DNA of 64,000 bases from Mobula birostris (taxonomy: Eukaryota), in the NCBI RefSeq assembly GCF_030028105.1, contig NC_092402.1, positions 64,901,110 to 64,965,109 of the forward strand, read 5' to 3'. The notes beneath the pieces were generated by a model that made no database searches, was not told the DNA's origin, and saw nothing but the letters and a program-made list of their open reading frames with translations. The number at the start of each line of letters is the position of its first letter. The stretch's first letter is position 1. Shown piece after piece: positions 1-57,634 of the stretch. A program made the translations under genes and the position numbers.

Positions 1-470
1 GGGATGTATCTGTCCTGTATCTTCCAAATTGCTCCCAGAGGCTCTAACCATTGTTGCTCTGCCGTCATCCCTGCTAATGTTTCCTTCCGATCAGCTTTGG
101 CCAGCACCCCTCTCATGCCTCTGTAATTCCCTTTACTCCACTGTAATACTGATACATCTGACTTTAGCTTCTCCCTCTCAAATTGCAGGGTGAATTCTAT
201 CATATTATGATCACTGTCTCATAAGGGTTCCTTTACTTTAAGCTTCCTCATCAAATCTGGTTCATTACACAACACCCATTCCAGAATAGCCTTTCCCCAG
301 TGGGCTCAACCACCACCTTCTTTAAAAGGGCCATCTTGTCCGCAATCTACAAATCCTCTCTTGCAATCCAGCATCAACTTGATTTTCCCAATCTATCTGC
401 ATATTGAAATCTGACTATTGTCACATTGCCCTTTGAGATGCCTTGTTTATCTCCCGTTGTAATTTGTTTT
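1..470 (-). mobile_element. CR1 LINE ORF2 fragment, endonuclease/linker region (full fragment at ~15215-15890; also ~30660-31335 and ~47275-47950)
   Basis: ORF 15257-15622(-), MIEFTLQFEREKLKSDVSVLQWSKGNYRGMR...WLTREVK, is typical of CR1 ORF2. Confidence 0.85.
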
Positions 471-589
471 CTTAGTGATTTCCAATTTTCAATTCATCCT
501 ATCTTCCTGCAAATTGTCTACATCCATTCATTCCCTGCCTGTTCACGTGGCTGCATAAGTGGTTCTAAAATGTTCATATCCTATCTACT

Positions 590-1060
590 TCCAACAACCA
601 GTGTTTCAGCACATTCTAGGCATCCACCACTCTCTGTATAAAGAACTTGACTTGTACATTTTCTTTAAACTTTCCTACTTTCACCTTAAATCTACGTATG
701 TCCTCCAATATTTGACATTTCCACCTGGGGAAAAACTCTGATTAGTTACCCGATCTTTACCTCTCATAATTTTATATACTCTTTATCATGTCGCCCGTCA
801 GCCACCAACACATCGAATACACTCCAATCCATACAGCATCCTGGCGAATCTCTTATACATTCTCGGTCCAAAGTCCTTCCATTCTTCCTGCAGTGCAGAA
901 ACCAGAATGGGACAAAATACTCCAAATGTGGCCTAGCCAAAGTTTTGTGTAGCTACAACATGATTTGCCAACTTTAACTCAATACCCTGACCAATGAAGG
1001 CAAGCATAACCTACACCTATTTTACTACCCTAATCTCTTGTACTATCACTTTCTATGGAT
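590..1060 (-). mobile_element. Degenerate CR1 LINE 3' fragment (repeated in each unit)
   Basis: Antisense CR1 3' signatures CCACCACTCTCTG, CCTCTCATAATTTTATATAC and CCAGAA...AATACTCCAAATGTGGCCTA. Confidence 0.7.
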
Positions 1061-1331
1061 ATGCTTTGTAGTTCTTCTTGTAAACTGGAGATTGGAAATT
1101 GCAGGCCTATACTAACTTGAAACAGGTGAGAGACTGTTTCATCCAGGACGCTCACTGCCCATAGATGAAGGTTACTTTCCTCATTCAATTTGGACTGTTT
1201 CCCATGGGATTGTTCTGATTCTTTGTGTCTCTCACTATACCTTTCAACTGGGCAGCATTTACGATGCTCAGAACCCTTGAGAGAAAGGAGAATATTCACA
1301 CGATTAAAATTTTTTTTCATCAGATTCCAAT

Positions 1332-1590
1332 GGCACTGTAGTGCAGTTGTTAGCACAATGCTTTACAGTGTAGACAACTGAGGTTCAATTCCCGCCACTG
1401 CCTGTAAGGAGTTTGTATGTTCTCACTGTGACCGCGTGGGTTTCCTCCGGGTGCTCCAGTTTCCTTCCACAGTCCAAAGACATACAGGTCGGTAGGTTAA
1501 TTGGTCATTGTAAATTGTCCCCTGATTAGGCTAGCGTTAAAAATTGGGCAATATGGCTCGAAGGGCCTGTTCCGCGCTGTATCTCAATAA
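1332..1590 (+). mobile_element. tRNA-derived V-SINE (HE1-like); copies at 16750-17008, 32194-32452, 48812-49070
   Basis: A/B-box head (GGCACTGTAGTGCAGTTG...GGTTCAATTCCC), V-domain core GCGTGGGTTTCCTCCGGGTGCTCCAGTTTCCTTCCACAGTCCAAAGAC, and CR1-like tail GAAGGGCCTGTTCCGCGCTGTATCTC. Confidence 0.88.
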
Positions 1591-1844
1591 GTCGATAAAT
1601 ATGTTCTCTAAGACAATGTAAAAGTAATTTCTTTGGTGAAGGAGGAGCTAGCTGGCTGCTATGCTTGGACTTGTGTGATAGCTTTAAACATATTTTATGT
1701 TTCTTTCAGTAACCTTCCTCTAACTTACAAATTATTTCAAAGTTCTTGAATTTCTGACAAAGGTATGATGGTTTCTCTTTTCAGTACTTGAATAATGTGC
1801 TTAAGCAAAGAAAGAGTCCAGATTGGCAGATTCAAAAATTTCAG

Positions 1845-1850
1845 TTTATT
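1845..1850 (-). terminator. Polyadenylation signal AATAAA of the keratin gene (also 17263-17268, 32707-32712, 49325-49330)
   Basis: AATAAA on the minus strand ~340 nt past the stop codon, followed by a U-rich downstream element (CTCTTTCTTTG). Confidence 0.7.
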
Positions 1851-2191
1851 CAGTGTTACAGAAATGCCACAAAAGATAAATCCCCAACATAAAATGAGTC
1901 AAAATCACAAATCAGAGCACCACATCTAAAACTTTGATTAATTTCCTATTTTCAAAGGCCCAAGAAGTAAAGGATGAACTTTCCACTTTTCCCACAAACC
2001 CAAGTTACAGACTAACTTGACGTTTGCTGTGTATTGGTTAATTTCATGTTGCTTAACTATGTAAAATTGAGTAGAATTCCAAGATCAGGCAGAAAGTTAA
2101 TCTAAACAAGTTAACCACTTCACTGAACAGACTGTGTGAATGAAGTATAAAAACTGGCAAGAGAGTCACCAGAGACATAACTGACAGTAGT

Positions 2192-5100
2192 TTATAACTG
2201 ATTGATTGAAGATCCACTTCTGCTTGAAGAGGTCTGCTGCACTGAGCTCAGAATTACTGCTCTTTTTCCACCAGTTTCCATCTCACTGCCCCCTTTGAGG
2301 TAGCCAGACATACCACTACTTGCGCTGCTGAAATCCCCAAAACTTCCTGTAAAAGGGAGAGGAAAGGAAAAAGACACTTTAGAATATGCATCCTGAAATT
2401 GAGAAAACAATTGCAATGACATCAAGCAGGTCACAATCTTAACAGAGTAAAACAGCCCCAAGTGCTTCACGTAACTTTTAGTAAGCAAATGCTTGACTCT
2501 AAGATTTTATGTATACAGATATATCAAAGCATTTTGAAATCATAAATTTTAAAGGAGAGAGAAAAAAGGTGGAAATGAAATTTCGAGAAAGAAATCACTG
2601 AAATGTAGGAACTACTTATCCATGAGTGCCATTCCATCAGTCATGGCTCAGGGTGTGCAGAGTAGTTTACAGAGACAGGGAAGATCTTTGCTATGGAAAG
2701 ATTTGAAGACTCAGATCTTAAAACTGAGGTATACCAGTTTAGGAGCCAATATAAGTCAGTGAGCACAAAAGATGATGGGGGGTAGAATAATTTATAAAAT
2801 GGACGACATACATTCAGTGGCCTCTTTATTAGGCACACCTTGTACACCTGCTGGCTAATGCAAATATCTAATCAGTCAATTATGTGGCAGCAACTCAGTG
2901 CATAAAGGCATGCAGACATGTTCAAGAGGTTCAGTTGTTCAGATCAAACATCAGATGGGGGAAGAAATGTAATCGAAGTGACGTTGACCCAATTGATTGT
3001 TGCTGTCAGACGGGATAATTTGAGTCTCTCAAGAACTGCTGGTCTCCTGGGATTTTCGTGCACAACAGTCTCTAGAGTTTACGGAGAATGGTACACAAAA
3101 CAAGGACAATCAGTGAGTGGAAGTTCTGTGAGTGAAAAAGCCTTGTTAATGAAAGAAGTCAGAGGAGAAAGGCCAGACTGGTTCAAGCTGACAGGAAGAC
3201 GACAGTAACTCAAATTACTACGTGTCACAACAGTGGTGTGCAGAAGAGCATCTGAAAGGCACATAATGGTTAAACCTTGAAGTGGATGTGCTACAGCAAC
3301 AGAAGACCATGAGCAGGTACCTAATAAGAGTGGCCACTAAGACTACGGTAGCTTTGATTGAAAATAAACTTATTGCAAGAATTGTTAAAGACTTCCACGT
3401 GTTTCTAAAATGACTTCTACCATGACCTGTAGTTTCTCCTCTACCATAATCAATAGAGTTTTTGGCTGTAGTTCATCTATTTCCTGCATTTCTGCTCTCC
3501 ATCCCTCACCTCTCAGACAGAGCAAGGACAGAGATCCTCTAGTCATTATCTTCCACCTCACCAGTTCAGCGTTTAACAGCTCATCCTTTACAATTTGCAC
3601 CAGCTTCCACAATATTCCACAACTGGATACGTCCATACCTTCCCTGCCTTTCATCATGTAAACGAGACTGTTCCCTGGGCAACTGTCTTCTATCCCAATG
3701 TCACTGCGTGTTTTGTGAAATTACAGGAGATGCTACACCTGTCCGTTCATCTCTTTCCTTCCCAGTGTCTGGGGATGCAAACAGTCCTTCAAGTTGGAGC
3801 AGCAATTCACTTGCACTTCTTTCAATCTAGTGTCTTGCACTCAGTGTTCACAGTGTGGTTTCCTCCACCAGCTGCAGACGGAGTGACAACATTGCAGAGC
3901 ACCAGGAGTGACCAAAGCTCCCTTTTGTTGCCTATTTAACTCTCCATCCAGCTCCCACTCTGACCTCTGTCTGTGGCTTCAATTTCTAATATTCAATTTA
4001 TAATATGCTGATATAAGGAGGACCAACATGCGCTTTGCAACTCATTTTCTGTTTGGGCCATGTTGCTGCCTTCTCCACTTGAAATTGAGTACGGCGACAT
4101 AAGGGAACTTAATTCCTCTATTTGCACACCGATTTACCTCACTTTAAAAGTAGGCCTGGCCGACTGGACACGTCAGACAGCCTGACATTTCACACCTTGT
4201 CAAGTTCCTCTGTTTGTATTCTCACTCTCTAACTGCCTCGATTAACCCGTCGACTGGGTGACGCCAACAACTTATCTAAATAGCAATCTTGGCTTCCCCC
4301 TATCTGAGATACTCCCTTGGTCCTATTGACCTGTCCCCCACCTTCCTGGCAACTTAAAACTCTTACTTTCTTTCTTTCTCAGTTGTGATGAGCGACTTTT
4401 GACATGAAACATTGACTCTATTTCTCTTCCCTTGGATGCTACCTGGCCTGCTGCGTATTTCCAGTGTAATTTTTAAATTTCATATTTGTAGCATCTGCAT
4501 TTTTTCACAGTATCAGAGGAGCCCGATGCTCGGTTTTGGATGCTATCACTGAGATCATGATCATAGGTGAGAAATAGGCCTTTGCAGACTTTGGATTATA
4601 GGAAATAAGCTGCCTACCAAATGAGAACAGGGAAGGACTATTCAAAGGTGAAGCATTGTTCAAGTTCAAGGTTATTGTCATTCACTCGTGCACATGTATA
4701 CCGCCAAACCAAACAATATTCCTCCAGACCAAAGTGCACAACATGGTATATACAACTCGCTCAGAACACATAAAGTAATATAGCCACAAATAAATTAACA
4801 AATAATAAGGGTGCATTGACAACACAAGTTAAAAAGTAAACAGTATAACGCTGCTGGTGCTTCATGTGTGATGAGACCTGAGAGGAGGCAGGGAATTCAT
4901 TCGTCTTATGGCCTGGGCTAAGAAGCTGTTTCCTATCATTGGACAATGGTTAAACAAGCAATGGCATCTTTTGTTGCAAACAGGTAAAGAAAGGACAAAG
5001 AGGCATTGCTGACCATGGTCACAATCGTATGGGGTGTCAGGGTGTCATTCAAACCCCAATTTAGGACGCAACGGGACATTTGAGGACTGAAGGCAACAGA

Positions 5101-8100
5101 AAGATGTCAAAGAGGGTGTTGATTTATAAGAAGGAAATGTTAAATGTGAGCCTTTTTTGGGAAGAGTAATTTTAGAGCATGTGAAAGGGAGAAGAGAGCA
5201 ACAAAGGACAGTGAACCATTGATGATATCAATTCAGGAAAATCATTTGGAAAACATTCATAAGAAATACAATCACAGAAATGAGTACCACTGCTCTGAAA
5301 ATGTACAACAGAATGATTTGTAAACAGAACAATGAGGTATCAAGACTTGGAGAAGAACGAAGAATATTTCCAGAATATTCCATTTTTCATTTTGCGGTTT
5401 GTGTTTTGGTCAGTAGTTAAAATTTCAAGCAAGGATTATACGTTCTCTTACCTTGCTGTGAAACTTGTTGGACGCTGAGGGTTTTGACGCCTTCTACCAT
5501 CCTGTTGATAAAGGAAACACTTGTGTAACAACAGCCATTTCTAGGATGTTCAGAAATATATCTTTTTCAAGTTACCAAGGGTTTCCTTCTGAAAGCAGCA
5601 ATGAGCTGCATGGGTGAAGTTGACGGGCACATTGACTCTGTCGAGCCTTGCCCGAGACACTGATTCTGTAAGTTCGAGTGCTGCCGGTGAGCAGCAGTAG
5701 CCTCGTCAGTGTGCGCAGGGAGCTATTTGTCAGCCTGCTTATGTTGTACAGTGCTTCATCCACTGCAGCATCAGGGGAGAGTTCACCTAGTGGTGACTGA
5801 ATCACTGACTAGATGTTCATTCGGAGACTGAGTCGGATGTATTTCTGGGGTCAGATGAAAACCAGCCTTTAAACAAAAGTAAGTGCCACTCCCTGGACCA
5901 AATGCCCCATTAAAGACAAAGACTCTAGTAATGAAGAGTGCAATAAAGAGCCCGTACAGATTGTAATCTGCAAGTACGCAGGACTGTGGCATAAACCCAG
6001 TGTGATATCTGGAACTTGGAAAAGACCAAAGCCCTACCTGATTTCCTCTTGCGCCAGTAGTTTACTGTAGGTGTTAATTTCGATATCCAGAGCCAACTTG
6101 ACATTTATCAGCTCGTCGATTTCACGAGTTTGCTTGGCAATCTCCTGTTTTGCTTTCCTGATGGCTTCTTGCAGATCAACGATATTTTGTTTACTGTCTT
6201 TGAGAGACATCTCGCCACGTTCCTCGGCTTCAGCGATCGCAGCCTCCAGTTTCAAACGCTGAGACACACAGAGGTGAGTGTGGACATTTTTGCAGATTAT
6301 AACATGAAGCCTTGCCAACATCCCCACCCTGCTATCGGAAAGAGCCATACTGAGAGTAGAGTATTGCAGATTGGCTTAGGAGTAATCGAGTTCACAAGGG
6401 TTACAGTGGAAGGAACCAGCCAGGTTGTTACTACTGAAAGTTCCCCAGTGTATGATTTAGCTCAGATTGACCTGTGTTTCAGCTGTCTCTTGGTCATTTG
6501 CTTTGGGCTGGGAAGAGAAAAGTGCAGATGCAAGAGACGGCAGATGCTGCAGTCTGGAGTAAGAAAATAGCAGAACTACTGCAGAAGATCAGCGGGTGAA
6601 GTAGCATCTGTGAAGGCATAAAGAATTATTGACCATTTGGGTCGGGTCGCTGCATTAGGACTCGGGACTTGAGAGGAAAGACAGCTTGCTACCGTCGTTA
6701 GGCCGCAACCAAGATCTCTTGTTTGCTTTCACTTCCTGACTTACCTGCTGCTTTAGATACTCGATGTCCCCAGTCAGCTTACGGATGCGACTCTGCAGAT
6801 CATTACACTCCGATTTGATCACTCGCACTTCTTCCGCATGACCTCCAGGCATTGTGCTGAGTTCCACCATCTGCAAGGAGACACTGGTAGACGTTAGTAA
6901 GGGTTTCTCCTCCCAGCACAGAGGTCAGAGCTATCAATGCACTTCTACGTGGGGCTGGAGCTGGAGCTCACCTTCGCCTTTTTCCAGTTCTCAGCATCAT
7001 CACGGCTTTTATCTGCCATACTTTGGTATTGGGCCTTGACTTCACTGATGATCTGGTCTATGTTCAGGTTGCGGCTAGTGTCCACCTGCACGCTGACAGC
7101 AGTGTTCTGAATCTGTGACTCCAGCTCACGGATTTCCTAAAGATGGGCAGAGCAAAACTAATGTAAGGAGACTGAATTGAACAGCAAAAGGACCAGAAGG
7201 CTCTTGCACCATGTAGCATATTTACCTCTTGGAAGATTGTCTTCAGGAATTCAATTTCATCAGTCAGGCTTTCTAGTTTTGCTTCCAATTCCACCTTGTT
7301 CATGTAGGATTCATCAACATCCTGGAGAGAGTAGGGCACAAGGTTTGTAAATCTATTGAAGACCACTGATATGGTCCTACAGAGAGCTAGAAAGTAGTGC
7401 TCACCTTCTTCACCATGACAAACTCGTTTTCCATTTCAGTTCTCCTGTTAATTTCATCTTCGTATCTGAAATGAACCACTGACGTTACTGGCAAACCCTT
7501 GGAAATCAACATTTCTGTCCCATTTCTTCGACAGGGCCATGCTGGTTGTCGGAACTCCTTGCTCCCTGGTGCTTAGCCAGGGTTTCCTCACACTTCTATT
7601 TATCCCCGTGTGTGCACCGCTCTTCCTGACATTTGATTCCGCAAGACACAGCATCCCGCTACGCCAGACAGGTCGACCGTGCCGCGCCTCGACGGAATGA
7701 AACAACATACGCTGCCGTCCCTGAACTGACGACTATTTCGGTGACTCCCTGAGCTCTGAGTGACACCTCTCTATCCAGACCTCAGTCTTAACGGAGCTCT
7801 CCCCGACGAGCACTTGCCCGACCCAGCTTCCAGACCTCCACTAGCTGCTGTTAGGTTACCAAGAAACCCAGTGGAAAATAGCTGATTGTAACCGGGAATT
7901 GTTCGAACGTTTACCCCGCCCACGATTTGCCCGATTCCGCTCTTTTTTTTCTCTGAACCAGTGAACAGATACGGGACGAGTTACAGATACAGACGAGTTG
8001 GGAAATCCTGGTGGGAGACAGTACACTTACTTGCCCTTAAAGTCCTCAACTAGACCTTGCATCTGCACAAGGTCCGATTCGAACTTCAGCTTCTCCTGCC

Positions 8101-8749
8101 CAAGAGTTTCCAGTTGCCTCTTGAGGTTGTCAATGTAAGTTTGGAACATGTTATCGATGTTGGAGGTGTACGTCCCCTGCCTCTTCAGGAGCTCCAGTTT
8201 GACCTTCAGCTGAGCATTTTGCTGTTCGAGAAGGCGAACCTGCGGGTAAGGAATGAACACACGCTTAGATTTTTGCATTGAGCTGGCGAGGAAGTGAAAA
8301 GAGACATTTGCACAGTGCTGCCAAGACAGGCGCAGACAGAGCTGGATACGGTACGGTACCTGGTTTATGAAACTTGCGAACTGGTTGTTGAGCGTAGTGA
8401 GCTCCCTCGTTTCCTGCATACGAACTTGCTGCAGACTGGTGTCATTTTGTGGTAGCGGGGCGCTTAGATCAAGGGCCGGCATCATCGAACTGGAACTGAA
8501 ATTTGAACTTGAACCGTAACCTGAAGCGTAACTTGAACCGCTTGAACCAAGCCTGAACGATGAGCCAGAAAGTATACGTCTTGCCCCTCCGATACTTGGT
8601 CCAATTCCGGCTCCAGACACACTCATCGCCTTTCTGCTACTAATTCTTCGCGACGACCCCATGGCGCCGCCAAGACTAGACCGCATCGATGGGCTGCCTG
8701 AAAACTGCGTGGTCTGTCTAAAGGACCTTTTGGTGTAAGAGCCGCTCAT
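2192..8749 (-). CDS. Type II keratin (keratin 8-like, divergent), copy 1; 9 exons, 490 aa
   Basis: Exons on the minus strand: 8360-8749, 8031-8239, 7405-7465, 7226-7321, 6972-7136, 6745-6870, 6038-6258, 5452-5501, 2192-2346. Total 1473 nt, all GT-AG, frame continuous. Kozak context is ACCATG. The protein has a Ser/Gly-rich head and the motifs [36 protein letters not shown] and [15 protein letters not shown]. Exon sizes 209/61/96/165/126/221 match type II keratin genes. Confidence 0.95.
2811..3343 (+). mobile_element. Non-autonomous Tc1/mariner-derived element in intron 8; copies at 18229-18761, 33673-34205, 50292-50824
   Basis: TA-flanked inverted ends CATTCAGTGGCCTCTTTATTAGG / CCTAATAAGAGTGGCCACTAAG. 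The interior retains a transposase HTH remnant ([21 protein letters not shown]). Confidence 0.82.
3385..4500 (+). mobile_element. Old degenerate Penelope-like retroelement in intron 8 (repeated in each unit)
   Basis: Collinear similarity to the younger Penelope at 43890-45004, including the [13 protein letters not shown] segment, a GIY-YIG remnant and the tail GATGCTACCTGGCCTGCTG. Confidence 0.7.
4658..4940 (-). mobile_element. 3' end of a Rex1/Babar-type LINE in intron 8 (repeated in each unit)
   Basis: Short-repeat tail TTCAAGTTCAAG followed by TTATTGTCATTC...AAGAAGCTGTTTC, the typical antisense 3' end. Confidence 0.55.
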
Positions 8750-9090
8750 GGTGAAATTAGAGTTTTGTTCTCTGGTTCCGAGTTTGCTGGAGCGATCAGT
8801 CCCGATCTGAACTGCTGGCGCAGGTGAGAGCGGCTTTGAGCTGCTTTTATGAGCAGTGCGGATCTGGGCTTGGTCAGGGTGTCAGCTGACAGAAATGGGC
8901 ATGGTAACATCGAGATAGAGGAGGAGCTAGGCACACCCTCTCCCATGGGTTCCAACCTGTCCGCTTGTGCATGGTAACCGCTCTCGGGGCCTCGGGCCAA
9001 ACTGGCGTCAGCAAGAATGAGTGAGTCCGGGAAACAAGAAGAGCTCCCTCCTGGAGCTCAAGCTACGCCGATCAAGAGCGGAGAAACGAC
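7600..9090. promoter_or_regulatory. CpG-rich region over promoter, exons 1-2 and intron 2 (repeated in each unit)
   Basis: CG dinucleotides are visibly dense (e.g. CGACCGTGCCGCGCCTCGACGG, CGCGACGACCCC) compared with the CpG-depleted flanks. Not computed formally. Confidence 0.55.
8844..8851 (-). promoter_or_regulatory. TATA-like box CATAAAAG of the keratin gene (also 24262-24269, 39706-39713, 56326-56333)
   Basis: The only AT-rich box in a GC-rich stretch, ~95 nt upstream of the ATG, which is compatible with a ~70-nt 5'UTR. Confidence 0.65.
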
Positions 9091-9099
9091 CATTAGGTG

Positions 9100-9330
9100 T
9101 CAGTTTGACTGCCCAACCCACCTGACCCACGGTGGTTGAGATACATTGTACAGATAGGTGGTAGATTCAGAGTATCTCCATCACTGCAAGGCATGCTGGG
9201 ACATTTTGAAAGCAGCTCCCGGTTCCCGGTCATTTTACTTGCCCTCCGAATTCCCATACCGACCTGGCTGCCCTGGACGTCCTGGATTGCAAGGATCATG
9301 CTAGAGGAACAGCACCTCATATTCCCTTTG
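9100..9330 (+). mobile_element. Degenerate Penelope GIY-YIG fragment abutting the array junction (also ~24520-24750, ~39960-40190)
   Basis: Translates to YIVQIGGRF...LEEQHLIF, matching LEDQHLIF of the element at 44318-44611. Confidence 0.6.
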
Positions 9331-9344
9331 CCCCTCCACCTATC

Positions 9345-10110
9345 TTTGCATTGTCTGTAAAATTTGCAATAAAGTCATCAATTCCTTCAACAAATGATTG
9401 ACTTATAATATAAAAAGAATTGGTCCCAACATAGACCCCTGTAAAACACCACTGGTCACTGGCATCCAACAAGAACGGGCTCCCTTTATTCCCACTCTTT
9501 GCCTCCTGCCAATCAGCCACAGCTTTACCCATGCTAGAATCTTCCCTGTAATACCATGTACACGTAGCTTGTTAAGCAGCCTCATGTGTGGCACCTTGTC
9601 AAAGCCCTTCTGGAATTCCAAGTGTACAAGATTAACCAATTCTCCATTATCTATCCTGTTTGTTATTACTTCAAAGAATTCCAACAGATTTGTCAGGCAA
9701 GATTTTCCCTTGAGCAAACCATGCTGAGTACAGCCTATTTTATCTTATGCCTCCAAGTATCCTGACAGCTCATCCTTAATAATCGACTCCAACACCTTCC
9801 CAGCCAATGAGGTCAGACTAACTGGCCTATATTTTCCTTTCTTCTACCTCTCTCCCTCCTTGGAGAGTGGAGTGACATTTACAATTTCCCAGTCTTCTGA
9901 AACCATTCCAGAATCTAGTGATTCTTGAAAGATAACTACTAATGCTTCCACGATCTCTTCAGCCATCTCTTTCAGAACTCTGGTGTGTACACCATCTGGT
10001 CCAGGTGACTTATCTACCTTCAGACCTTTCAGCTTCCTGAGAACCTTCTCTCTAGTTATGGTAACTTCACACATTTCATGCTCCCTGACACCTGGAACTT
10101 CCGCCATACT
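9345..10110 (-). mobile_element. CR1 LINE reverse-transcriptase fragment (also 24763-25528, 40207-40972)
   Basis: ORFs contain KSPGPDGVHTRVLKE, KGKSCLTNLLEFFE, FQKGFDKVPH and SGVLQGSMLGP. The reading frame is broken by frameshifts. Confidence 0.92.
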
Positions 10111-10913
10111 GCCCTCCCCACCTCCCTTATTCGGTTCCATCTTTCACCTTCATCTCCTATCAGATCCCACCATCTGCAACCCTCTGTCACGTCCACATGT
10201 CTCCTCCCAGTCTCTGTCACTATAGGGTCACAATTCTACAGTATCATGGCTGCCTGGTCTTGGCCTCAGCTCCACTTTCTCATCCCCTTCCCATCCCATA
10301 TGTTTGACCGAGTCAGTGGATGCTGGAGCTGGTCTGCACTTCACATTCATCTCTTGCGCAGTGTCTACGTACCACGCAGCTCACTAGTCCTGGCAGTCTC
10401 CCTTTTGTAGCTGTTACGTGAGATGGAGCAGGCCACAGGATGTAGACAGTGGAAACAAAGGCCCTGCCAGAGAACCACCCTGATGGCTTTTTGGCTACTG
10501 ATGTTTTCAAGGGCCCTTAAAACTTTCAGATATTGGTGGTAGTTCGGCATCTAAGTAATTCAAAAGAATAAATGCTGTTGTGAAAATATATTTATTTCCT
10601 GTAGGATGTTCACTTTCTGTAAATGAATGAAAAAATAATACAAATATTCACTAAAGTAAGCAAACTTGTCATTTTAATGAAGGGAAGCAGCACAGATAAA
10701 ATGACTGCGGTCCTGCTAGGTGAAACCTCTATGCTAGTGTAAGCTGAAAGGCCAGAGTAGCTTTGGAGTAAGGACTGGTGCATGTAGCCTTAGCTGGGGC
10801 CTGTGAGTGTGCCCTTGACTACACCTTTGCTTGTGGAAAGTGGGAGGAATCAAAAGAGAAGTTACTAAGGGTAAGGACATGCTCTGCCAGGCAGAGGAAC
10901 AGTGTTGACAGAG

Positions 10914-12540: not shown

Positions 12541-12699
12541 AGCTTCCACTATGAGCTGATGGTAGTACACGTGCAAGTAATTGGTTTGATATTGTCACAT
12601 GTACTGAGAAGATGTAGAGAAATGCTTTTGCTTTGCACGCCATCCAGACAGGGTATCCAAACGTAATAACTTCGAGGTAGTACTAAAGGAATACAGAAT

Positions 12700-45004: not shown

Positions 45005-45043
<39 letters not shown>

Positions 45044-48000
45044 GACGGGGAGCTGGAGAAACACGCGGGAAAAGGGAATTAGGAGAACATCAGGAATAAA
45101 TATAAGGGACGGCCGGGACCGTGACAAGAATATTACAGAGCAAGTGCAATACAGGTTGACAAATCAGGTTCAAGGTTGACAATACATTTTCACCTAGCAA
45201 ACACATGGAATTTGTACACATTTATTGTATGTATTTTGCCAATCTCGATAATGAAAGTATTGTTGTTGACATTTAGATAGCAGTGGCACTTTATTTTCTA
45301 TGCCTAATTCAGAAGATGAAACCATGCTTAGGATGTTGTTGGGAAATAAGTAGTGTGTAGTTGGAGATTTTGGTACAAGGCCTTAGAATCACTATCCTGG
45401 TTTTCCCAAGGCATCAGCTTTATTTGTGCTCAGGATTATGCACGTTACTTCATGATCTGCAGTATTGCATCTCTTGCTGTCAAGTTGCATAATCCATGGT
45501 GAGATTCCAACAGATGATCTGCTTGCCCTCAAAAAGCCACTTACACTGCCATTAGTGAATTATCGGCAGAGAAGATCACAGAGAAGCTGATGGTGGGGCA
45601 CGATCAGCTGCATATATAGCTTTAACCATGCTCAAGATGGCAACTACTAACTTGCCAAGCTCACCTACTTCTGGCTTAGCCATCGATCCTCAGCAAATTG
45701 CTGAGAACAGAACCTTACATTAATGACAGCAGGGATATTGACTCCCTCCTTCACGCCCAAGGACAAAGCTGGGAACTGGGCCATGTATGCAGCTGGATGT
45801 GGGCAGGAAACATCGATATGAACATGGTCCTGGAACGTGCAGTCAGAAAATGGCCGGGAGGTAAATGGGTGAATGGAGTATGATTAAGTACCTGGCCAGA
45901 ATCAAGTTTATAATTATGGCTGAGGTATGACTAGGAGAGGCACCAAATGTGCAACCTGGAGCAGAGTTAGATGTGCAATAGCTACTCCAGTTAAAAGCAA
46001 TTGTATGCAACTTCCACTCTGTGTACTTTACTAAATTTAGGGCACTGGAACCTTTGATAATGCTGCAGTCACATCCCAATAATGTGTTTGATCTTTCAAT
46101 GACTTCAAGAAGTGGGATGGAGAACACACCCATGTCTATCAATGGTGCTGTAGTGGAGATGGTTGGGAGTTTCAAATGACCAGGTGTACTTATCACCGAC
46201 AATTTGTCTTGGCTCAGCTACATGGATGATACAGCCAAGGAAGCACATTAGTGCCTCTACTTCCTCAGAATTCTAAGGAACTTCAGCATGTCCCTGATGA
46301 CCCTCACCAATTTTCACAGATTCTGTCTGTAAGCCCCCCTGGCAAGCCTCAGGGTCGCTCAACTTGCTGTCGTCTCGGGAAACAGCCCTCGCCCCACCAA
46401 ACTGGGTAATTAAGTTTGCGTGGATGCTGTGTGATGTAACCCACCCTGCCAAATAACAGACAATACACCATATATGATAAAATGAATGACAGTTTATAGA
46501 GATTACTGGAACTATATAATGAATAGACATAAAATATAAAAGGAAATGAAAGGCACCACACTTATCAAAGTTCAATCTCTTCATGCACAAACAGTTGGAG
46601 CTCTAGTAACGATCCTCTCTTCACCATTCGTTCCCCTCTGACCACTTCGACGTGCCGCCTGGGACCAACCACGGTGGTCGACCAGGCGCTCCACACGAGT
46701 CTGTCGCCGTCTCCTCTCCTCACCGAAGACCCCGGACCTTGGACTCCTGCTCGGGTCCGACCCCGTTAGCCAGCTCACAGCACATTGTCCATCCTCTCTC
46801 TGTCCATGGCGCCTTCTCCCCAAAAACCCACGCATCATAATAACTTACAGACACACTAGAAAGAATAACATGGATGCCCATTGGTTCATTTGTTCTCTTA
46901 TCAACATGATAACCCAAACAAGCTGTGAGCGAGAGAACTTTCTCAGCAGTTAACATAACAAAGAAGCCATTTTAATTATAACACAACAAAGAAGCCATTT
47001 TAATTAGCCTACGCAGTAACATAAAAGAAGAAACCCCTTACATATAAAACATACTATCTGGATGCTCTGAGTTAGCAAGAATCTATGAACCCCCACCTTA
47101 AATACACCTGATGACGTGGCCTCCACAGCCAATTATGGCAACAAATTCCACAGATTCACCACCCCCTGGCTATAGAAATCTCTCCTAATCTTCATTCTAA
47201 ATGGACGTCCCTCTATTCTGAGTGTATACCCTCTGCTCTGAGACTCACGCACTATGGGAGGCTACTTTTGAGATCGTTTTTGATATTGTTGGCTAGCTTA
47301 CCTTTGTAGCTCATTTTTTAGCTCCTTATGGCTATTTTAGTTGTCTTCTGTTGATTTCTGAAAGCTTCCCACTCCTCAAGTTTCCCACTAATTTTCCTTC
47401 TATTATATGCCCTGTGTTTTGCTCTTATGTCGGCCTTGACTTCTCTTGTCAGCCACTTGCCTTGAGAATATTTCTTCTTTGGGATGTATCTGTCCTGTAT
47501 CTTCCAAATTGCTCCCAGAGGCTCTAACCATTGTTGCTCTGCCGTCATCCCTGCTAATGTTTCCTTCCGATCAGCTTTGGCCAGCACCCCTCTCATGCCT
47601 CTGTAATTCCCTTTACTCCACTGTAATACTGATACATCTGACTTTAGCTTCTCCCTCTCAAATTGCAGGGTGAATTCTATCATATTATGATCACTGTCTC
47701 ATAAGGGTTCCTTTACTTTAAGCTTCCTCATCAAATCTGGTTCATTACACAACACCCATTCCAGAATAGCCTTTCCCCTAGTGGGCTCAACCACCACCTT
47801 CTTTAAAAGGGCCATCTTGTCCACAATCTACAAATCCTCTCTTGCAATCCAGCATCAACTTGATTTTCCCAATCTATCTGCATATTGAAATCTGACTATT
47901 GTCACATTGCCCTTTGAGATGCCTTGTTTATCTCCCGTTGTAATTTGTTTTCTTAGTGATTTCCAATTTTCAATTCATCCTATCTTCCTGCAAATTGTCT

Positions 48001-49672
48001 ACATCCATTCATTCCCTGCCTGTTCACGTGGCTGCATAAGTGGTTCTAAAATGTTCATATCCTATCTACTTCCAACAACCAGTGTTTCAGCACATTCTGG
48101 GCATCCACCACTCTCTGTATAAAGAACTTGACTTGTACATTTTCTTTAAACTTTCCTACTTTCACCTTAAATCTACGTATGTCCTCCAATATTTGACATT
48201 TCCACCTGGGGAAAAACTCTGATTAGTTACCCGATCTTTACCTCTCATAATTTTATATACTCTTTATCATGTCGCCCGTCAGCCACCAACACATCGAATA
48301 CACTCCAATCCATACAGCATCCTGGCGAATCTCTTATACATTCTCGGTCCAAAGTCCTTCCATTCTTCCTGCAGTGCAGAAACCAGAATGGGACAAAATA
48401 CTCCAAATGTGGCCTAGCCAAAGTTTTGTGTAGCTACAACATGATTTGCCAACTTTAACTCAATACCCTGACCAATGAAGGCAAGCATAACCTACACCTA
48501 TTTTACTACCCTAATCTCTTGTACTATCACTTTCTATGGATATGCTTTGTAGTTCTTCTTGTAAACTGGAGATTGGAAATTGCAGGCCTATACTAACTTG
48601 AAACAGGTGAGAGACTGTTTCATCCAGGACGCTCACCGCCCATAGATGAAGGTTACTTTCCTCATTCAATTTGGACTGTTTCCCATGGGATTGTTCTGAT
48701 TCTTTGTGTCTCTCACTATACCTTTCAACTGGGCAGCATTTACGATGCTCAGAACTCTTGAGAGAAAGGAGAATATTCACACGATTAAAATTTTTTTTAT
48801 CAGATTCCAATGGCACTGTAGTGCAGTTGTTAGCACAATGCTTTACAGTGTAGACAACTGAGGTTCAATTCCCGCCACTGCCTGTAAGGAGTTTGTATGT
48901 TCTCACTGTGACCGCGTGGGTTTCCTCCGGGTGCTCCAGTTTCCTTCCACAGTCCAAAGACATACAGGTCGGTAGGTTAATTGGTCATTGTAAATTGTCC
49001 CCTGATTAGGCTAGCGTTAAAAATTGGGCAATATGGCTCGAAGGGCCTGTTCCGCGCTGTATCTCAATAAGTCGATAAATATGTTCTCTAAGACAATGTA
49101 AAAGTAATTTCTTTGGTGAAGGAGGAGCTAGCTGGCTGCTATGCTTGGACTTGTGTGATAGCTTTAAACATATTTTATGTTTCTTTCAGTAACCTTCCTC
49201 TAACTTACAAATTATTTCAAAGTTCTTGAATTTCTGACAAAGGTATGATGGTTTCTCTTTTCAGTACTTGAATAATGTGCTTAAGCAAAGAAAGAGTCCA
49301 GATTGGCAGATTCAAAAATTTCAGTTTATTCAGTGTTAACAGAAATGCCACAAAAGATAAATCCCCAACATAAAATGAGTCAAAATCACAAATCAGAGCA
49401 CCACATCTAAAACTTTGATTAATTTCCTATTTTCAAAGGCCCAAGAAGTAAAGGATGAACTTTCCACTTTTCCCACAAACCCAAGTTACAGACTAACTTG
49501 ACGTTTGCTGTGTATTGGTTAATTTCATGTTGCTTAACTATGTAAAATTGAGTAGAATTTCAAGATCAGGCAGAAAGTTAATCTAAACAAGTTAACCACT
49601 TCACTGAACAGACTGTGTGAATGAAGTGTAAAAACTGGCAAGAGAGTCACCAGAGACATAACTGACAGTAGT

Positions 49673-52600
49673 TTATAACTGATTGATTGAAGATCCACTT
49701 CTGCTTGAAGAGGTCTGCTGCACTGAGCTCAGAATTACTGCTCTTTTTCCACCAGTTTCCATCTCACTGCCCCCTTTGAAGTAGCCAGACATACCACTAC
49801 TTGCGCTGCTGAAATCCCCAAAACTTCCTGTAAAAGGGAGAGGAAAGGAAAAAGACACTTTAGAATATGCATCCTGAAATTGAGAAAACAATTGCAATGA
49901 CATCAAGCAGGTCACAATCTTAACAGAGTAAAACAGCCCCAAGTGCTTCACGTAACTTTTAGTAAGCAAATGCTTGACTCTAAGATTTTATGTATACAGA
50001 TATATCAAAGCATTTTGAAATCATAAATTTTAAAGGAGAGAGAAAAAAGGTGGAAATGAAATTTCGAGAAAGAAATCACTGAAATGTAGGAACTACTTAT
50101 CCATGAGTGCCATTCCATCAGTCATGGCTCAGGGTGTGCAGAGTAGTTTACAGAGACAGGGAAGATCTTTGCTATGGAAAGATTTGAAGACTCAGATCTT
50201 AAAACTGAGGTATACCAGTTTAGGAGCCAATATAAGTCAGTGAGCACAAAAGATGATGGGGGGTAGAATAATTTATAAAATGGACGACATACATTCAGTG
50301 GCCTCTTTATTAGGCACACCTTGTACACCTGCTGGCTAATGCAAATATCTAATCAGTCAATTATGTGGCAGCAACTCAGTGCATAAAGGCATGCAGACAT
50401 GTTCAAGAGGTTCAGTTGTTCAGATCAAACATCAGATGGGGGAAGAAATGTAATCGAAGTGACGTTGACCCAATTGATTGTTGCTGTCAGACGGGATAAT
50501 TTGAGTCTCTCAAGAACTGCTGGTCTCCTGGGATTTTCGTGCACAACAGTCTCTAGAGTTTACGGAGAATGGTACACAAAACAAGGACAATCAGTGAGTG
50601 GAAGTTCTGTGAGTGAAAAAGCCTTGTTAATGAAAGAAGTCAGAGGAGAAAGGCCAGACTGGTTCAAGCTGACAGGAAGACGACAGTAACTCAAATTACT
50701 ACGTGTCACAACAGTGGTGTGCAGAACAGCATCTGAAAGGCACATAATGGTTAAACCTTGAAGTGGATGTGCTACAGCAACAGAAGACCATGAGCAGGTA
50801 CCTAATAAGAGTGGCCACTAAGACTACGGTAGCTTTGATTGAAAATAAACTTATTGCAAGAATTGTTAAAGACTTCCACGTGTTTCTAAAATGACTTCTA
50901 CCATGACCTGTAGTTTCTCCTCTACCATAATCAATGGAGTTTTTGGCTGTAGTTCATCTATTTCCTGCATCTCTGCTCTCCATCCCTCACCTCTCAGACA
51001 GAGCAAGGACAGAGATCCTCTAGTCATTATCTTCCACCTCACCAGTTCAGCGTTTAACAGCTCATCCTTTACAATTTGCACCAGCTTCCACAATATTCCA
51101 CAACTGGATACGTCCATACCTTCCCTGCCTTTCATCATGTAAACGAGACTGTTCCCTGGGCAACTGTCTTCTATCCCAATGTCACTGCGTGTTTTGTGAA
51201 ATTACAGGAGATGCTACACCTGTCCGTTCACCTCTTTCCTTCCCAGTGTCTGGGGATGCAAACAGTCCTTCAAGTTGGAGCAGCAATTCACTTGCACTTC
51301 TTTCAATCTAGTGTCTTGCACTCAGTGTTCACAGTGTGGTTTCCTCCACCAGCTGCAGACGGAGTGACAACATTGCAGAGCACCAGGAGTGACCAAAGCT
51401 CCCTTTTGTTGCCTATTTAACTCTCCATCCAGCTCCCACTCTGACCTCTGTCTGTGGCTTCAATTTCTAATATTCAATTTATAATATGCTGATATAAGGA
51501 GGACCAACATGCGCTTTGCAACTCATTTTCTGTTTGGGCCATGTTGCTGCCTTCTCCACTTGAAATTGAGTACGGCAACATAAGGGAACTTAATTCCTCT
51601 ATTTGCACACCGATTTACCTCACTTTAAAAGTAGGCCTGGCCGACTGGACACGTCAGACAGCCTGACATTTCACACCTTGTCAAGTTCCTCTGTTTGTAT
51701 TCTCACTCTCTAACTGCCTCGATTAACCCGTCGACTGGGTGACGCCAACAACTTATCTAAATAGCAATCTTGGCTTCCCCCTATCTGAGATACTCCCTTG
51801 GTCCTATTGACCTGTCCCCCACCTTCCTGGCAACTTAAAACTCTTACTTTCTTTCTTTCTCAGTTGTGATGAGCGACTTTTGACATGAAACATTGACTCT
51901 ATTTCTCTTCCCTTGGATGCTACCTGGCCTGCTGCGTATTTCCAGTGTAATTTTTAAATTTCATATTTGTAGCATCTGCATTTTTTCACAGTATCAGAGG
52001 AGCCCGATGCTCGGTTTTGGATGCTATCACTGAGATCATGATCATAGGTGAGAAATAGGCCTTTGCAGACTTTGGATTATAGGAAATAAGCTGCCTACCA
52101 AATGAGAACAGGGAAGGACTATTCAAAGGTGAAGCATTGTTCAAGTTCAAGGTTATTGTCATTCACTCGTGCACATGTATACCGCCAAACCAAACAATAT
52201 TCCTCCAGACCAAAGTGCACAACATGGTATATACAACTCGCTCAGAACACATAAAGTAATATAGCCACAAATAAATTAACAAATAATAAGGGTGCATTGA
52301 CAACACAAGTTAAAAAGTAAACAGTATAACGCTGCTGGTGCTTCATGTGTGATGAGACCTGAGAGGAGGCAGGGAATTCATTCGTCTTATGGCCTGGGCT
52401 AAGAAGCTGTTTCCTATCATTGGACAATGGTTAAACAAGCAATGGCATCTTTTGTTGCAAACAGGTAAAGAAAGGACAAAGAGGCATTGCTGACCATGGT
52501 CACAATCGTATGGGGTGTCAGGGTGTCATTCAAACCCCAATTTAGGACGCAACGGGACATTTGAGGACTGAAGGCAACAGAAAGATGTCAAAGAGGGTGT

Positions 52601-55600
52601 TGATTTATAAGAAGGAAATGTTAAATGTGAGCCTTTTTTGGGAAGAGTAATTTTAGAGCATGTGAAAGGGAGAAGAGAGCAACAAAGGACAGTGAACCAT
52701 TGATGATATCAATTCAGGAAAATCATTTGGAAAACATTCATAAGAAATACAATCACAGAAATGAGTACCACTGCTCTGAAAATGTACAACAGAATGATTT
52801 GTAAACAGAACAATGAGGTATCAAGACTTGGAGAAGAACGAAGAATATTTCCAGAATATTCCATTTTTCATTTTGCGGTTTGTGTTTTGGTCAGTAGTTA
52901 AAATTTCAAGCAAGGATTATACGTTCTCTTACCTTGCTGTGAAACTTGTTGGACGCTGAGGGTTTTGACGCCTTCTACCATCCTGTTGATAAAGGAAACA
53001 CTTGTGTAACAACAGCCATTTCTAGGATGTTCAGAAATATATCTTTTTCAAGTTACCAAGGGTTTCCTTCTGAAAGCAGCAATGAGCTGCATGGGTGAAG
53101 TTGACGGGCACATTGACTCTGTCGAGCCTTGCCCGAGACACTGATTCTGTAAGTTCGAGTGCTGCCGGTGAGCAGCAGTAGCCTCGTCAGTGTGCGCAGG
53201 GAGCTATTTGTCAGCCTGCTTATGTTGTACAGTGCTTCATCCACTGCAGCATCAGGGGAGAGTTCACCTAGTGGTGACTGAATCACTGACTAGATGTTCA
53301 TTCGGAGACTGAGTCGGATGTATTTCTGGGGTCAGATGAAAACCAGCCTTTAAACAAAAGTAAGTGCCACTCCCTGGACCAAATGCCCCATTAAAGACAA
53401 AGACTCTAGTAATGAAGAGTGCAATAAAGAGCCCGTACAGATTGTAATCTGCAAGTACGCAGGACTGTGGCATAAACCCAGTGTGATATCTGGAACTTGG
53501 AAAAGACCAAAGCCCTACCTGATTTCCTCTTGCGCCAGTAGTTTACTGTAGGTGTTAATTTCGATATCCAGAGCCAACTTGACATTTATCAGCTCGTCGA
53601 TTTCACGAGTTTGCTTGGCAATCTCCTGTTTTGCTTTCCTGATGGCTTCTTGCAGATCAACGATATTTTGTTTACTGTCTTTGAGAGACATCTCACCACG
53701 TTCCTCGGCTTCAGCGATCGCAGCCTCCAGTTTCAAACGCTGAGACACACAGAGGTGAGTGTGGACATTTTTGCAGATTATAACATGAAGCCTTGCCAAC
53801 ATCCCCACCCTGCTATCGGAAAGAGCCATACTGAGAGTAGAGTATTGCAGATTGGCTTAGGAGTAATCGAGTTCACAAGGGTTACAGTGGAAGGAACCAG
53901 CCAGGTTGTTACTACTGAAAGTTCCCCAGTGTATGATTTAGCTCAGATTGACCTGGTGTTTCAGCTGTCTCTTGATCATTTGCTTTGGGCTGGGAAGAGA
54001 AAAGTGCAGATGCAAGAGACGGCAGATGCTGCAATCTGGAGTAAGAAAATAGCAGAACTACTGCACAAGATCAGCGGGTGATGTAGCATCTGTGAAGGCA
54101 AAAAGAATTATTGACCATTTGGGTCGGGTCGCTGCATTAGGACTCGGGACTTGAGAGGAAAGACAGTTTGCTACCGTCGTTAGGCCGCAACCAAGATCTC
54201 TTGTTTGCTTTCACTTCCTGACTTACCTGCTGCTTTAGATACTCGATGTCCCCAGTCAGCTTACGGATGCGATTCTGCAGATCATTACACTCCGATTTGA
54301 TCACTCGCACTTCTTCCGCATGACCTCCAGGCATTGTGCTGAGTTCCACCATCTGCAAGGAGACACTGGTAGACGTTAGTAAGGGTTTCTCCTCCCAGCA
54401 CAGAGGTCAGAGCTATCAATGCACTTCTACGTGGGGCTGGAGCTGGAGCTCACCTTCGCCTTTTTCCAGTTCTCAGCATCATCACGGCTTTTATCTGCCA
54501 TACTTTGGTATTGGGCCTTGACTTCACTGATGATCTGGTCTATGTTCAGGTTGCGGCTAGTGTCCACCTGCACGCTGACAGCAGTGTTCTGAATCTGTGA
54601 CTCCAGCTCACGGATTTCCTAAAGATGGGCAGAGCAAAACTAATGTAAGGAGATTGAATTGAACAGCAAAAGGACCAGAAGGCTCTTGCACCATGTAGCA
54701 TATTTACCTCTTGGAAGATTGTCTTCAGGAATTCAATTTCATCAGTCAGGCTTTCTAGTTTTGCTTCCAATTCCACCTTGTTCATGTAGGATTCATCAAC
54801 ATCCTGGAGAGAGTAGGGCACAAGGTTTGTAAATCTATTGAAGACCACTGATATGGTCCTACAGAGAGCTAGAAAGTAGTGCTCACCTTCTTCACCATGA
54901 CAAACTCGTTTTCCATTTCAGTTCTCCTGTTAATTTCATCTTCGTATCTGAAATGAACCACTGACGTTACTGGCAAACCCTTGGAAATCAACATTTCTGT
55001 CCCATTTCTTCGACAGGGCCATGCTGGTTGTCGGAACTCCTTGCTCCCTGGTGCTTAGCCAGGGTTTCCTCACACTTCTATTTATCCCCGTGTGTGCACC
55101 GCTCTTCCTGACATTTGATTCCGCAAGACACAGCATCCCGCTACGCCAGACAGGTCGACCGTGCCGCGCCTCGACGGAATGAAACAACATACGCTGCCGT
55201 CCCTGAACTGACGACTATTTCGGTGACTCCCTGAGCTCTGAGTGACACCTCTCTATCCAGACCTCAGTCTTAACGGAGCTCTCCCCGACGAGCACTTGCC
55301 CGACCCAGCTTCCAGACCTCCACTAGCTGCTGTTAGGTTACCAAGAAACCCAGTGGAAAATAGCTGATTGTAACCGGGAATTGTTCGAACGTTTACCCCG
55401 CCCACGATTTGCCCGATTCCGCTCTTTTTTTTCTCTGAACCAGTGAACAGATACGGGACGAGTTACAGATACAGACGAGTTGGGAAATCCTGGTGAGAGA
55501 CAGTACACTTACTTGCCCTTAAAGTCCTCAACTAGACCTTGCATCTGCACAAGGTCCGATTCGAACTTCAGCTTCTCCTGCCCAAGAGTTTCCAGTTGCC

Positions 55601-56231
55601 TCTTGAGGTTGTCAATGTAAGTTTGGAACATGTTATCGATGTTGGAGGTGTACGTCCCCTGCCTCTTCAGGAGCTCCAGTTTGACCTTCAGCTGAGCATT
55701 TTGCTGTTCGAGAAGGCGAACCTGCGGGTAAGGAATGAACACACGCTTAGATTTTTGCATTGAGCTGGCGAGGAAGTGAAAAGAGACATTTGCACAGTGC
55801 TGCCAAGACAGGCGCAGACAGAGCTGGATACGGTACGGTACCTGGTTTATGAAACTTGCGAACTGGTTGTTGAGCGTAGTGAGCTCCCTCGTTTCCTGCA
55901 TACGAACTTGCTGCAGACTGGTGTCATTTTGTGGTAGCGGGGCGCTTAGATCAAGGGCCGGCATCATCGAACTGGAACTGAAATTTGAACTTGAACCGTA
56001 ACCTGAAGCGTAACTTGAACCGCTTGAACCAAGCCTGAACGATGAGCCAGAAAGTATACGTCTTGCCCCTCCGATACTTGGTCCAATTCCGGCTCCAGAC
56101 ACACTCATCGCCTTTCTGCTACTAATTCTTCGCGACGACCCCATGGCGCCGCCAAGACTAGACCGCATCGATGGGCTGCCTGAAAACTGCGTGGTCTGTC
56201 TAAAGGACCTTTTGGTGTAAGAGCCGCTCAT
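49673..56231 (-). CDS. Type II keratin (keratin 8-like, divergent), copy 4 (retains native upstream flank)
   Basis: Exons 55842-56231, 55513-55721, 54887-54947, 54708-54803, 54454-54618, 54227-54352, 53519-53739, 52933-52982, 49673-49827. It differs from copies 1-3 by S->N in exon 6 (LQSR->LQNR), L->F in the tail (GYLK->GYFK) and a synonymous GGC->GGT in exon 7. Confidence 0.95.
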
Positions 56232-57634
56232 GGTGAAATTAGAGTTTTGTTCTCTGGTTCCGAGTTTGCTGGAGCGATCAGTCCCGATCTGAACTGCTGG
56301 CGCAGGTGAGAGCGGCTTTGAGCTGCTTTTATGAGCAGTGCGGATCTGGGCTTGGTCGGGGTGTCAGCTGACAGAAATGGGCATGGTAACATCGAGATAG
56401 AGGAGGAACTCGGCACACCCTCTCCCATGGGTTCCAACCTGTCCGCTTGTGCATGGTTACCGCTCTCGGGGCCTCGGGCCAAACTGGCGTCAGCAAGAAT
56501 GAGTGAGTCCGGGAAACAAGAAGAGCTCCCTCCTGGAGCTCAAGCTACGCCGATCAAGTGCATTAAAAGACTGTGGACTGCTGTGCCCACTTGACCGGTG
56601 TTTGATATCTGTCGTACAGAGAAGTGGGCTGAGCAGCAGACGAGCGAGCCTTTGTGGATTGAAATTTCTTTTGGGCAGTGTTACAAATTAAGCAATCTCC
56701 TTTGTCCATGAGCAAATCTGCAGCCTCTTTCCGGTATTCAGTTCAAGTACAACAGAGCTGATGATGCTGCTGAGGTGGAAGAATATGGAGCTCGTCCTTC
56801 AATGTCCCTTGAAATTGCTTGCCTGTTTCTGTTTGTCTATGTGTAACATATAATCATTTAAAACTCGAACTCTTGTAAATGTGGAACATTAAAATCATCT
56901 CCTTTACATTACTTAGAAAATCACGGTGCAGAGAGAAAAATAAACTATCGGGGCTGGCTTGTGAAAAACAGAAAAGAATATCGCAGCAGGAGCCATGATT
57001 TGGGAAGAATACATTAAAATTTGAGCTTAGGGGAGTAAAAGAGAACGAAGTTAAACCAGAACACTTGTTTATTCCGTTGTATGGGCATTTTGACACTTGT
57101 TGCATATTTCACTGTAATTGGGCAACATTTAAGCGTATTCGTACATTGATCCAATTGGAAGTGGAACGTCTGCTTTAGTTGCATGATTCTGTGCCAATCC
57201 AATTAAATAGTTTAATTGATTTTTGACCATAAGTGTCATCACCACCACCAAGATTCTTTGGAAGAAAACCCAACCCAGGCTGTTTGAAGTTCATATGAAG
57301 ATTTAATTCTCATTTTTTTTAAATTAAAAGAGTGAAAATATATCTTAAAAAGGCAAAACAAAAATACCCTGTAAAAGCTGCATTGTTGATCTTGGACATC
57401 AGAGAAACCTCTGTTGTCGCTGAATATTTGCAGTAGCCCACTGTTGGAGAAGTAGTAACAATAGTTTGCATTTATATAACACAATTCATAACACATGACA
57501 CTTCACTGGTGTGAAACCATGAATCAGATCCATTTTAAATAGATCAAGTAGGCAGCTATTACAGAGTGCTTTAGAGAGGCTGATGGAGAGATGGTTGAAG
57601 GCTGATACAAGAGTGCAGATGCTTTAATCTGAAC

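Follow-up and report, generated by a model that had tools for sequence, protein, structure and literature searches.

We describe a tandem array of keratin genes in a 64,000-nt stretch of the genome of the manta Mobula birostris (hereafter, the window). The array occupies positions 1–56558 and carries four intact, nearly identical copies of a type II keratin gene, arranged head to tail. We think it likely that this is the 5′ end of an old elasmobranch type II keratin tandem array under concerted evolution, its members kept alike by gene conversion and unequal crossing-over. In our best reading, the array was also re-expanded recently in the manta lineage.

Self-BLAST of the window shows offsets within the array to be 99.6–99.7% identical across 9–28 kb, and a repeat of 15 kb at >99.5% identity rules out chance as an explanation. 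At the junctions 9076/9077, 24494/24495 and 39938/39939, the flanking 40 bp match exactly in both directions; at 56558 the match to the junctions extends over the left 40 bp but the right side diverges. These points delimit a partial unit with gene copy 1 (1–9076), from which the array extends leftward beyond the window; unit A (9077–24494; 15,418 bp), made up of spacer and gene copy 2; unit B (24495–39938; 15,444 bp), spacer and gene copy 3; and unit C (39939–56558; 16,620 bp), in which a spacer with a retroelement insertion is followed by gene copy 4, the 5′-most copy. A sequence-only reading of this stretch had proposed at least four intact, near-identical copies in a 15.4-kb unit with an identical junction. 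We confirm the copies as four nine-exon genes in a head-to-tail repeat; the identical junction holds, as does the unit length for units A and B, but the last unit is longer.

All four copies lie on the minus strand, each with nine exons and an intact 1,473-nt coding sequence (490 aa). In every copy a CATAAAA box lies ~100 nt upstream of the ATG and an AATAAA signal ~350 nt past the stop codon. Copy 1 (start to stop at 2192–8749; TATA-like box near 8845, AATAAA near 1845), copy 2 (17610–24167; 24263 and 17263, respectively) and copy 3 (33054–39611; 39707 and 32707) encode proteins identical to P0002; copy 4 (49673–56231; 56327 and 49325) encodes P0003, with N334 and F456. P0002 and P0003 are the two RefSeq Mobula birostris proteins labelled "K8-like". 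As the sequence-only reading had stated, copies 1–3 do not differ in their coding sequences. Copy 4 departs from them at three sites, with S334N, a silent substitution in codon G364, and L456F. At codon 334 (54272 in copy 4), N334 is also found in M. hypostoma and Hemitrygon, and S334 looks derived in copies 1–3; at codon 456 (49717 in copy 4), L456 is also found in Pristis, and F456 looks derived in copy 4. In copy 2, exons 1–5 lie at 23778–24167, 23449–23657, 22823–22883, 22644–22739 and 22390–22554, and exons 6–9 at 22163–22288, 21456–21676, 20870–20919 and 17610–17764, all on the minus strand. Its eight introns are all GT-AG, and the same border sequences occur in the other copies. The intact reading frame, splice sites, TATA-like box and polyA signal claimed for every copy are all present. 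Type II keratin genes have nine exons, with internal sizes near 209/61/96/165/126/221 nt; copy 2 shows this pattern (390/209/61/96/165/126/221/50/155 nt).

The predicted protein matches the Pfam Filament domain at residues 112–422 (profile positions 1–312 of 313, E 2e-88), giving a full rod between a Ser/Gly-rich head (42% Ser+Gly) and a tail, as in type II keratins. Named relatives, among the 120 matches listed, are keratin 8-type or unnamed intermediate filament rod proteins. The computed isoelectric point of 5.6 departs from the neutral-to-basic charge of type II keratins, although that charge is typical rather than strict and K8-type keratins are also mildly acidic. Judged by its protein, then, the gene is a type II keratin with degenerate rod-end motifs; the Filament domain, these motifs and the RefSeq identity as Mobula birostris agree with the earlier description of a divergent type II keratin from a ray. 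It has in common with K8-type keratins the type II rod (55–59% rod identity) and similar exon sizes. It differs from K8 in belonging to a separate elasmobranch clade, in having a degenerate rod-end motif in place of TYRKLLEGEE, and in having no Pfam PF16208 head domain listed. Cysteine-rich hard keratins have been defined by 20 or more cysteines (PMC11850651), and the manta protein, with only one cysteine, is therefore not a hard keratin by that definition. A tblastn search with 11 proteins plus tails for an alternative K8-type last exon, in the unit or upstream of copy 4, returned only the nine known exons among the matches listed, the others being weak or of low complexity.

How the copies differ from one another is the first line of evidence for concerted evolution. 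On the gene side, copies 1–3 differ by 0.02–0.03% and copy 4 by ~0.3%; the spacers of the three full units differ by 0.31–0.49%. Whole units, transposon remnants included, have diverged by just 0.02–0.5%, so the latest expansion is young in sequence terms. These differences are distributed unevenly. A 12,441-bp tract at 13940–26380, which spans the whole of gene 2, the junction and 1.9 kb of spacer, is 100% identical to 29384–41824. Between units A and B, all 16 substitutions fall within 3.4 kb, in a variable spacer zone (25963–29383 in unit B, 10545–13939 in unit A), and are followed by a gap of 10,560 bp, a length reached by none of 20,000 uniform simulations (dispersion p 1e-4). Unit C shows 1.3–1.9% differences beside its insertion and at the array edge, versus 0.27–0.34% elsewhere (binomial p 1e-5 to 4e-7, for windows picked after viewing the difference list); 3 of its 19 edge differences are CpG-type. 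In copy 4, 6 of the 12 intronic substitutions lie in intron 6, where a cluster at 53955–54167 (6 substitutions and one indel in ~210 bp) compares with ~0.2% in the other introns and is possibly an unconverted patch. Patchy divergence of this kind is what repeated exchange between copies would yield, with less exchange beside non-homologous DNA. Variation in copy number is plausible. A mutation rate of 7e-10 per generation, from the epaulette shark, would give ~0.2 million generations for copies 1–3 and 2.4 million for copy 4; we dropped this calculation and claim no date, because mantas may mutate at a different rate and because conversion sets the clock back.

Near-identity of this degree can also arise when one or two real copies are written repeatedly by the assembler, from haplotypes or misjoined reads. 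Copies 2 and 3 are identical over 12,441 bp, about as long as a typical long read, so the number of copies may have been miscounted. However, each of the three spacers has private variants (9, 3 and 10 of 22 variable sites, comprising 13 transitions and 9 transversions). Two alleles of one locus cannot yield three spacer versions, so pure false duplication is unlikely. The units also differ in CA-tract length, with (AC)20 at 12944–12983 in unit A and (AC)33 at 28362–28427 in unit B, one unit has a 1.2-kb insertion, and an independent shark assembly contains multicopy orthologues (see below). Taken together, these points make an assembly artefact a highly improbable explanation.

A second line of evidence comes from the DNA upstream of the genes. 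All copies have in common a 327-bp 5′ untranslated region and proximal promoter (24168–24494 for copy 2, minus strand), with 4 differences between copies 2 and 4. Just past the junction, the sequence at 24509–24579, which also follows the junctions at 9077 and 39939, retains a counterpart upstream of copy 4, at 56561–56627. After a 12-bp indel, these ~70-bp segments are ~66–70% identical and lie on nearly the same diagonal. With 150-bp windows and three scoring schemes, the observed score was reached by 0, 0 and 1 of 1000 shuffles and by 0 of 143 real windows; with 300-bp windows, it was reached by 0 of 1000 shuffles under all three schemes. Twenty windows of 200 bp gave no further colinear homology between the spacer and the copy-4 upstream DNA, and beyond 56627 there are just two dispersed-repeat-like matches to the unit. 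A 39-bp match of 26364–26402 to 57669–57707 (E 6e-4) was set aside as probably a dispersed repeat rather than colinear homology. A tblastn search with 11 type II proteins, and no type I query, found no keratin exons in the 7.4 kb of flank at 56559–64000. We infer from the flank comparison that the junction is not a clean new breakpoint and that the end of the spacer derives from the region upstream of an old paralogue. Either a conversion tract would have stopped at this junction, or crossing-over would have taken place there, at a homologous promoter position; both require an earlier duplicate.

The short common promoter bears on another possibility, namely neutral birth-and-death, in which independent recent duplications occur in separate lineages with no lasting array and no selection on dosage, and in which the extra copies are weakly expressed for want of copy 4's distal upstream DNA. 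Copies 1–3 have just 327 bp upstream of the ATG in common with copy 4, so their expression cannot be assumed, and a reverse-transcriptase remnant (24821–25162, minus strand; RVT_1 E 2.9e-9) lies close by in the spacer, ~650 bp upstream of the ATG of copies 1–3. Member counts vary widely between species, and in mammals conversion was significant in only 3 of 19 species-grouped keratin sets (PMC5540548). Yet all four manta copies are intact, and the old paralogous flank, like the discordance of rod and tail described below, requires long-lived paralogues. We regard birth-and-death of this kind as very improbable.

The third line of evidence is comparative. A midpoint-rooted tree of the rods of 28 named proteins unites 19 rows (18 elasmobranch species) in a single clade, separate from both bony-vertebrate K8 and P0114, the other K8-like protein of the devil ray M. 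hypostoma (support 100/98); the subgroups of the clade agree with known orders. This separate rod clade implies an elasmobranch paralogue lineage, not K8 itself. The clade includes S. stellaris Q9YH07, which we provisionally take to be an epidermal type II keratin. The rod-end motifs are degenerate in most clade members, and the manta variant of the helix-termination motif also occurs in the stingray Hemitrygon. Table S3 in the supplement of PMC11850651 places seven neighboring type II loci of the great white shark next to a type I gene, and the orthologous loci adjoin a krt8/krt18-like pair. In the alignment of that study, five loci have rods that differ, by eye, at 0–4 of ~310 positions; all five nearly match P0006 of the basking shark, a protein with 65% identity to the manta rod. 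Likeness is thus greater within species than between them: manta rods are 99.7–100% identical, white-shark rods have 0–4 differences, and manta and lamniform rods are 65% identical. In the sawfish, two adjacent type II loci with two cysteines each (PMC11850651) match the 2-member cluster P0007, and this species probably has two near-identical copies of the orthologue.

These relatives bear directly on another account of the array, in which a gene that had been single was newly amplified as a segment, under selection for keratin in quantity in some manta tissue, for instance the filter-lobe epithelium. Whole units, including transposon remnants, are 99.5–99.98% identical, there is a steep loss of identity at 56558, the epithelium of mobulid filter lobes is keratinous (PMC12690469), and the M. 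hypostoma cluster has 1 member versus 4+1 for M. birostris. On the other hand, homology runs on past the junction, five near-identical orthologues are found in the great white shark, which is not a filter feeder, the whale shark cluster has 1 member, the odd rod-end motif is also present in Hemitrygon, and a protein with one cysteine is not of the hard-keratin type. We consider fresh amplification unlikely. The sequence-only reading had inferred a young, dosage-type amplification of one gene for a specialized keratin used in bulk by some ray tissue. The youth of the latest expansion stands; origin from a single gene by fresh duplication is not supported, given the flank homology, the patchy divergence and the near-identical multicopy sets of the white shark and probably the sawfish, and a need specific to rays or filter feeders is therefore an unlikely cause. 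Convergent amplification in filter feeders, suggested by a 12-member basking-shark cluster, was rejected, given the near-identical white-shark copies and the single-member whale-shark cluster.

Concerted evolution of an old array would also explain a mismatch between rods and tails. M. hypostoma P0004 is 99.0% identical to the manta protein in the rod, and 415 of 442 residues are identical over exons 1–8. Its exon-9 tail matches best with skates (z 12.5–14) and with the elephant shark and zebra shark (z 10); the match to M. birostris has z 2.6, and the tails of the two mantas' proteins appear not to be orthologous. The tail tree rejects a two-Mobula clade (approximately unbiased test, p-AU 0.001), whereas the rod tree keeps that clade (support 97) and rejects grouping by tail type (p-AU 0.0002). 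Together with the flank homology past the junction, this discordance suggests, indirectly, that the array is older than the similarity of its copies. Among carpet sharks (P0015, P0016, P0127, P0128), the rods are closely related, yet the exon-9 tail of the zebra-shark model is unlike the tails of the whale, bamboo and epaulette sharks, repeating the discordance seen in Mobula.

Several points weigh against an old array evolving in concert. The spacer divergence of 0.3–0.5% is close to allelic diversity in another shark (pi 0.002 in the epaulette shark; PMC10587355), and allelic crossovers, rather than conversion, could give the patchiness; a four-gamete test would need more than the three full units of the window, and crossover between alleles yields the same pattern. 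The residual flank homology is short (~70 bp), and with 300-bp windows one of the three schemes gave scores this high in 6 of 137 real windows, which overlapped. Only ~5 positions separate the rods of the white shark and the basking shark, so that the identity of the white-shark copies may partly reflect a lamniform duplication followed by slow evolution. In 14 of 18 cases, the species-named clusters of the clade (at least 90% identity) have two or more members (4+1 in M. birostris, 1 in M. hypostoma, 1 in the whale shark, 12 in the basking shark), but these counts may mix loci, isoforms, alleles and related species, and many bony-fish clusters also have multiple members. P0004 is an automatic gene model that could be a chimera, and the tail comparison rests on automatic models. 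Finally, the four "DGVT-type" tails, a group named only after inspection of the alignment, form a weak clade, with support of 88/85 when the last 34 aa are used and no resolution with whole tails (p-AU 0.27).

With these points in view, we still favor concerted evolution of an old array as the simplest account; it may have proceeded as follows. At least two paralogues would have existed long ago, their diverged flanks surviving upstream of copy 4 on the one hand and of the internal copies on the other. Gene conversion, or crossover at the promoter position, would keep the exons, introns and ~330 bp of promoter uniform within a species. Between genes so nearly identical, unequal crossing-over could then copy gene plus spacer as a 15.4-kb block, and the gain and loss of such blocks would produce whole-unit repeats while copy number drifts. 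A type II cytoskeletal keratin must pair 1:1 with a type I keratin; established keratin biology suggests that identical copies of such an obligate heterodimer subunit most likely add output, not new function. The site of expression is probably a stratified epithelium, for example that of the skin. Papers on wound healing and on the skin proteome in sharks refer to krt8 or K8-like but do not separate this paralogue, and the accessible parts of PMC1896152 and PMC2174949 contain nothing on this gene.

Comparable systems are known in other vertebrates. The sequence-only reading had taken keratin clusters to consist normally of old, diverged paralogues. This is partly true, but in mammals K6A/B/C, K81/83/86/87 and K31/33A/33B/34 group by species (PMC5540548); paralogues of the corresponding genes (KRT6A/B/C, KRT81/83/86/87, KRT31/33A/33B/34) are closer within species, as in the manta array, and this has been attributed to concerted evolution. 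The manta array differs from these sets in that introns, promoter and the whole spacer of the 15.4-kb unit are homogenized, with up to 12.4 kb free of differences, and in that the pattern appears across the shark–ray split, ~265–350 million years according to the preprints cited here. In the mammalian KRTAP1-n array (bioRxiv 10.1101/282418), gene bodies are homogenized by conversion and flanks diverge, as they do here. Vertebrate type II cluster 2 (krt18/krt8 head-to-head plus further type II genes; Kimura and Nikaido, bioRxiv 10.1101/2020.05.06.063123) is alike in its tandem genes and nine-exon layout. Kimura and Nikaido sampled only the elephant shark among cartilaginous fish, in which they describe cluster 2, and report fish keratin copy number to be constant save in reedfish, with its 13-gene expansion; the accessible text of their study contains no occurrence of "gene conversion", "concerted", "identical" or "X chromosome". 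Elsewhere, keratin clusters are said to be absent from the fish examined (PMC8733776).

A literature search, which missed most subscription papers, found among the papers listed no description of the manta array or of concerted keratin evolution in elasmobranchs. The genes themselves are already annotated and concerted keratin evolution is already known in mammals; the elasmobranch instance is new in the literature searched. An elasmobranch-wide keratin lineage, carried under the automatic label "K8-like", appears to persist as a homogenized array, at odds with the view of a static keratin copy number in fish. The array also advises caution against reading near-identical copies as a young, species-specific adaptation.

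The location of the array raises the question of dosage. Genes of the krt8-like type are X-linked in all 13 elasmobranchs compared in a recent preprint (10.1101/2025.02.26.637739), which gives X sizes of 16.4–28.8 Mb, and of 45.0–73.0 Mb in Myliobatiformes. The sawfish ortholog lies on a sequence of 16,413,646 bp and the devil-ray ortholog on one of 73,079,903 bp, matching the range ends of 16.4 and 73.0 Mb; X-linkage of the window is likely. Sharks and rays lack global dosage compensation, and their X genes are ~1.5-fold female-biased (10.1101/2025.03.13.642935). Conceivably, the type II keratin that predominates in the stratified epithelia of sharks and rays is trapped on an ancient uncompensated X and is kept as a self-homogenizing multicopy array, since a single copy in males cannot match its autosomal type I partner. 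Tandem amplification would then serve as dosage compensation for this one gene and would have been maintained in sharks and rays alike. The X-linkage of krt8-like genes and the female bias speak for this idea, and the absence of global compensation allows it, but we consider it unlikely. In the white shark, two type I genes are near-identical as well (6 differences by eye, their autosomal position being assumed), human X genes with high expression are duplicated no more often than others (PMC4686125), and the array may sit in a shark pseudoautosomal region, as HoxC does (PMC10620051). Furthermore, the elephant shark, which has no heteromorphic X (10.1101/2025.03.13.642935), has a 12-member type II cluster, whose members may not all be separate loci. 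If the dosage idea is true, this locus would be a clean test of a highly expressed, stoichiometry-bound gene on an uncompensated X.

Other features of the array and its flank can be noted briefly. The extra 1.2 kb found only in unit C (43806–45003, plus strand) is a truncated retroelement flanked by CA-rich tracts, with a GIY-YIG endonuclease remnant at 44294–44608 (E 2.8e-5; 24.8 bits, cut-off 22.6), and is presumably Penelope-like. Lying within the CA tract, it was either inserted there or dropped from units A and B by CA-tract recombination; its left CA tract is degenerate, which hints that the element is old. Intron 1 (23658–23777; present in all copies) is 120 nt long, in frame and free of stop codons, such that its retention would add 40 residues to coil 1A rather than truncate the protein. 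The promoter and exon 1–2 region (23000–24600) has a CpG observed/expected ratio of 0.77, versus 0.42 over the unit as a whole, in line with an active gene. A dispersed repeat in intron 8 of all copies (18267–18730) is 78% identical to 62030–62506; it has a weak HTH_38 match, below cut-off (E 0.0095), and we take it to be possibly a Tc1/mariner remnant. Upstream of copy 4 lie two further repeat fragments, 75% identical, at 60613–60945 and 63496–63832.

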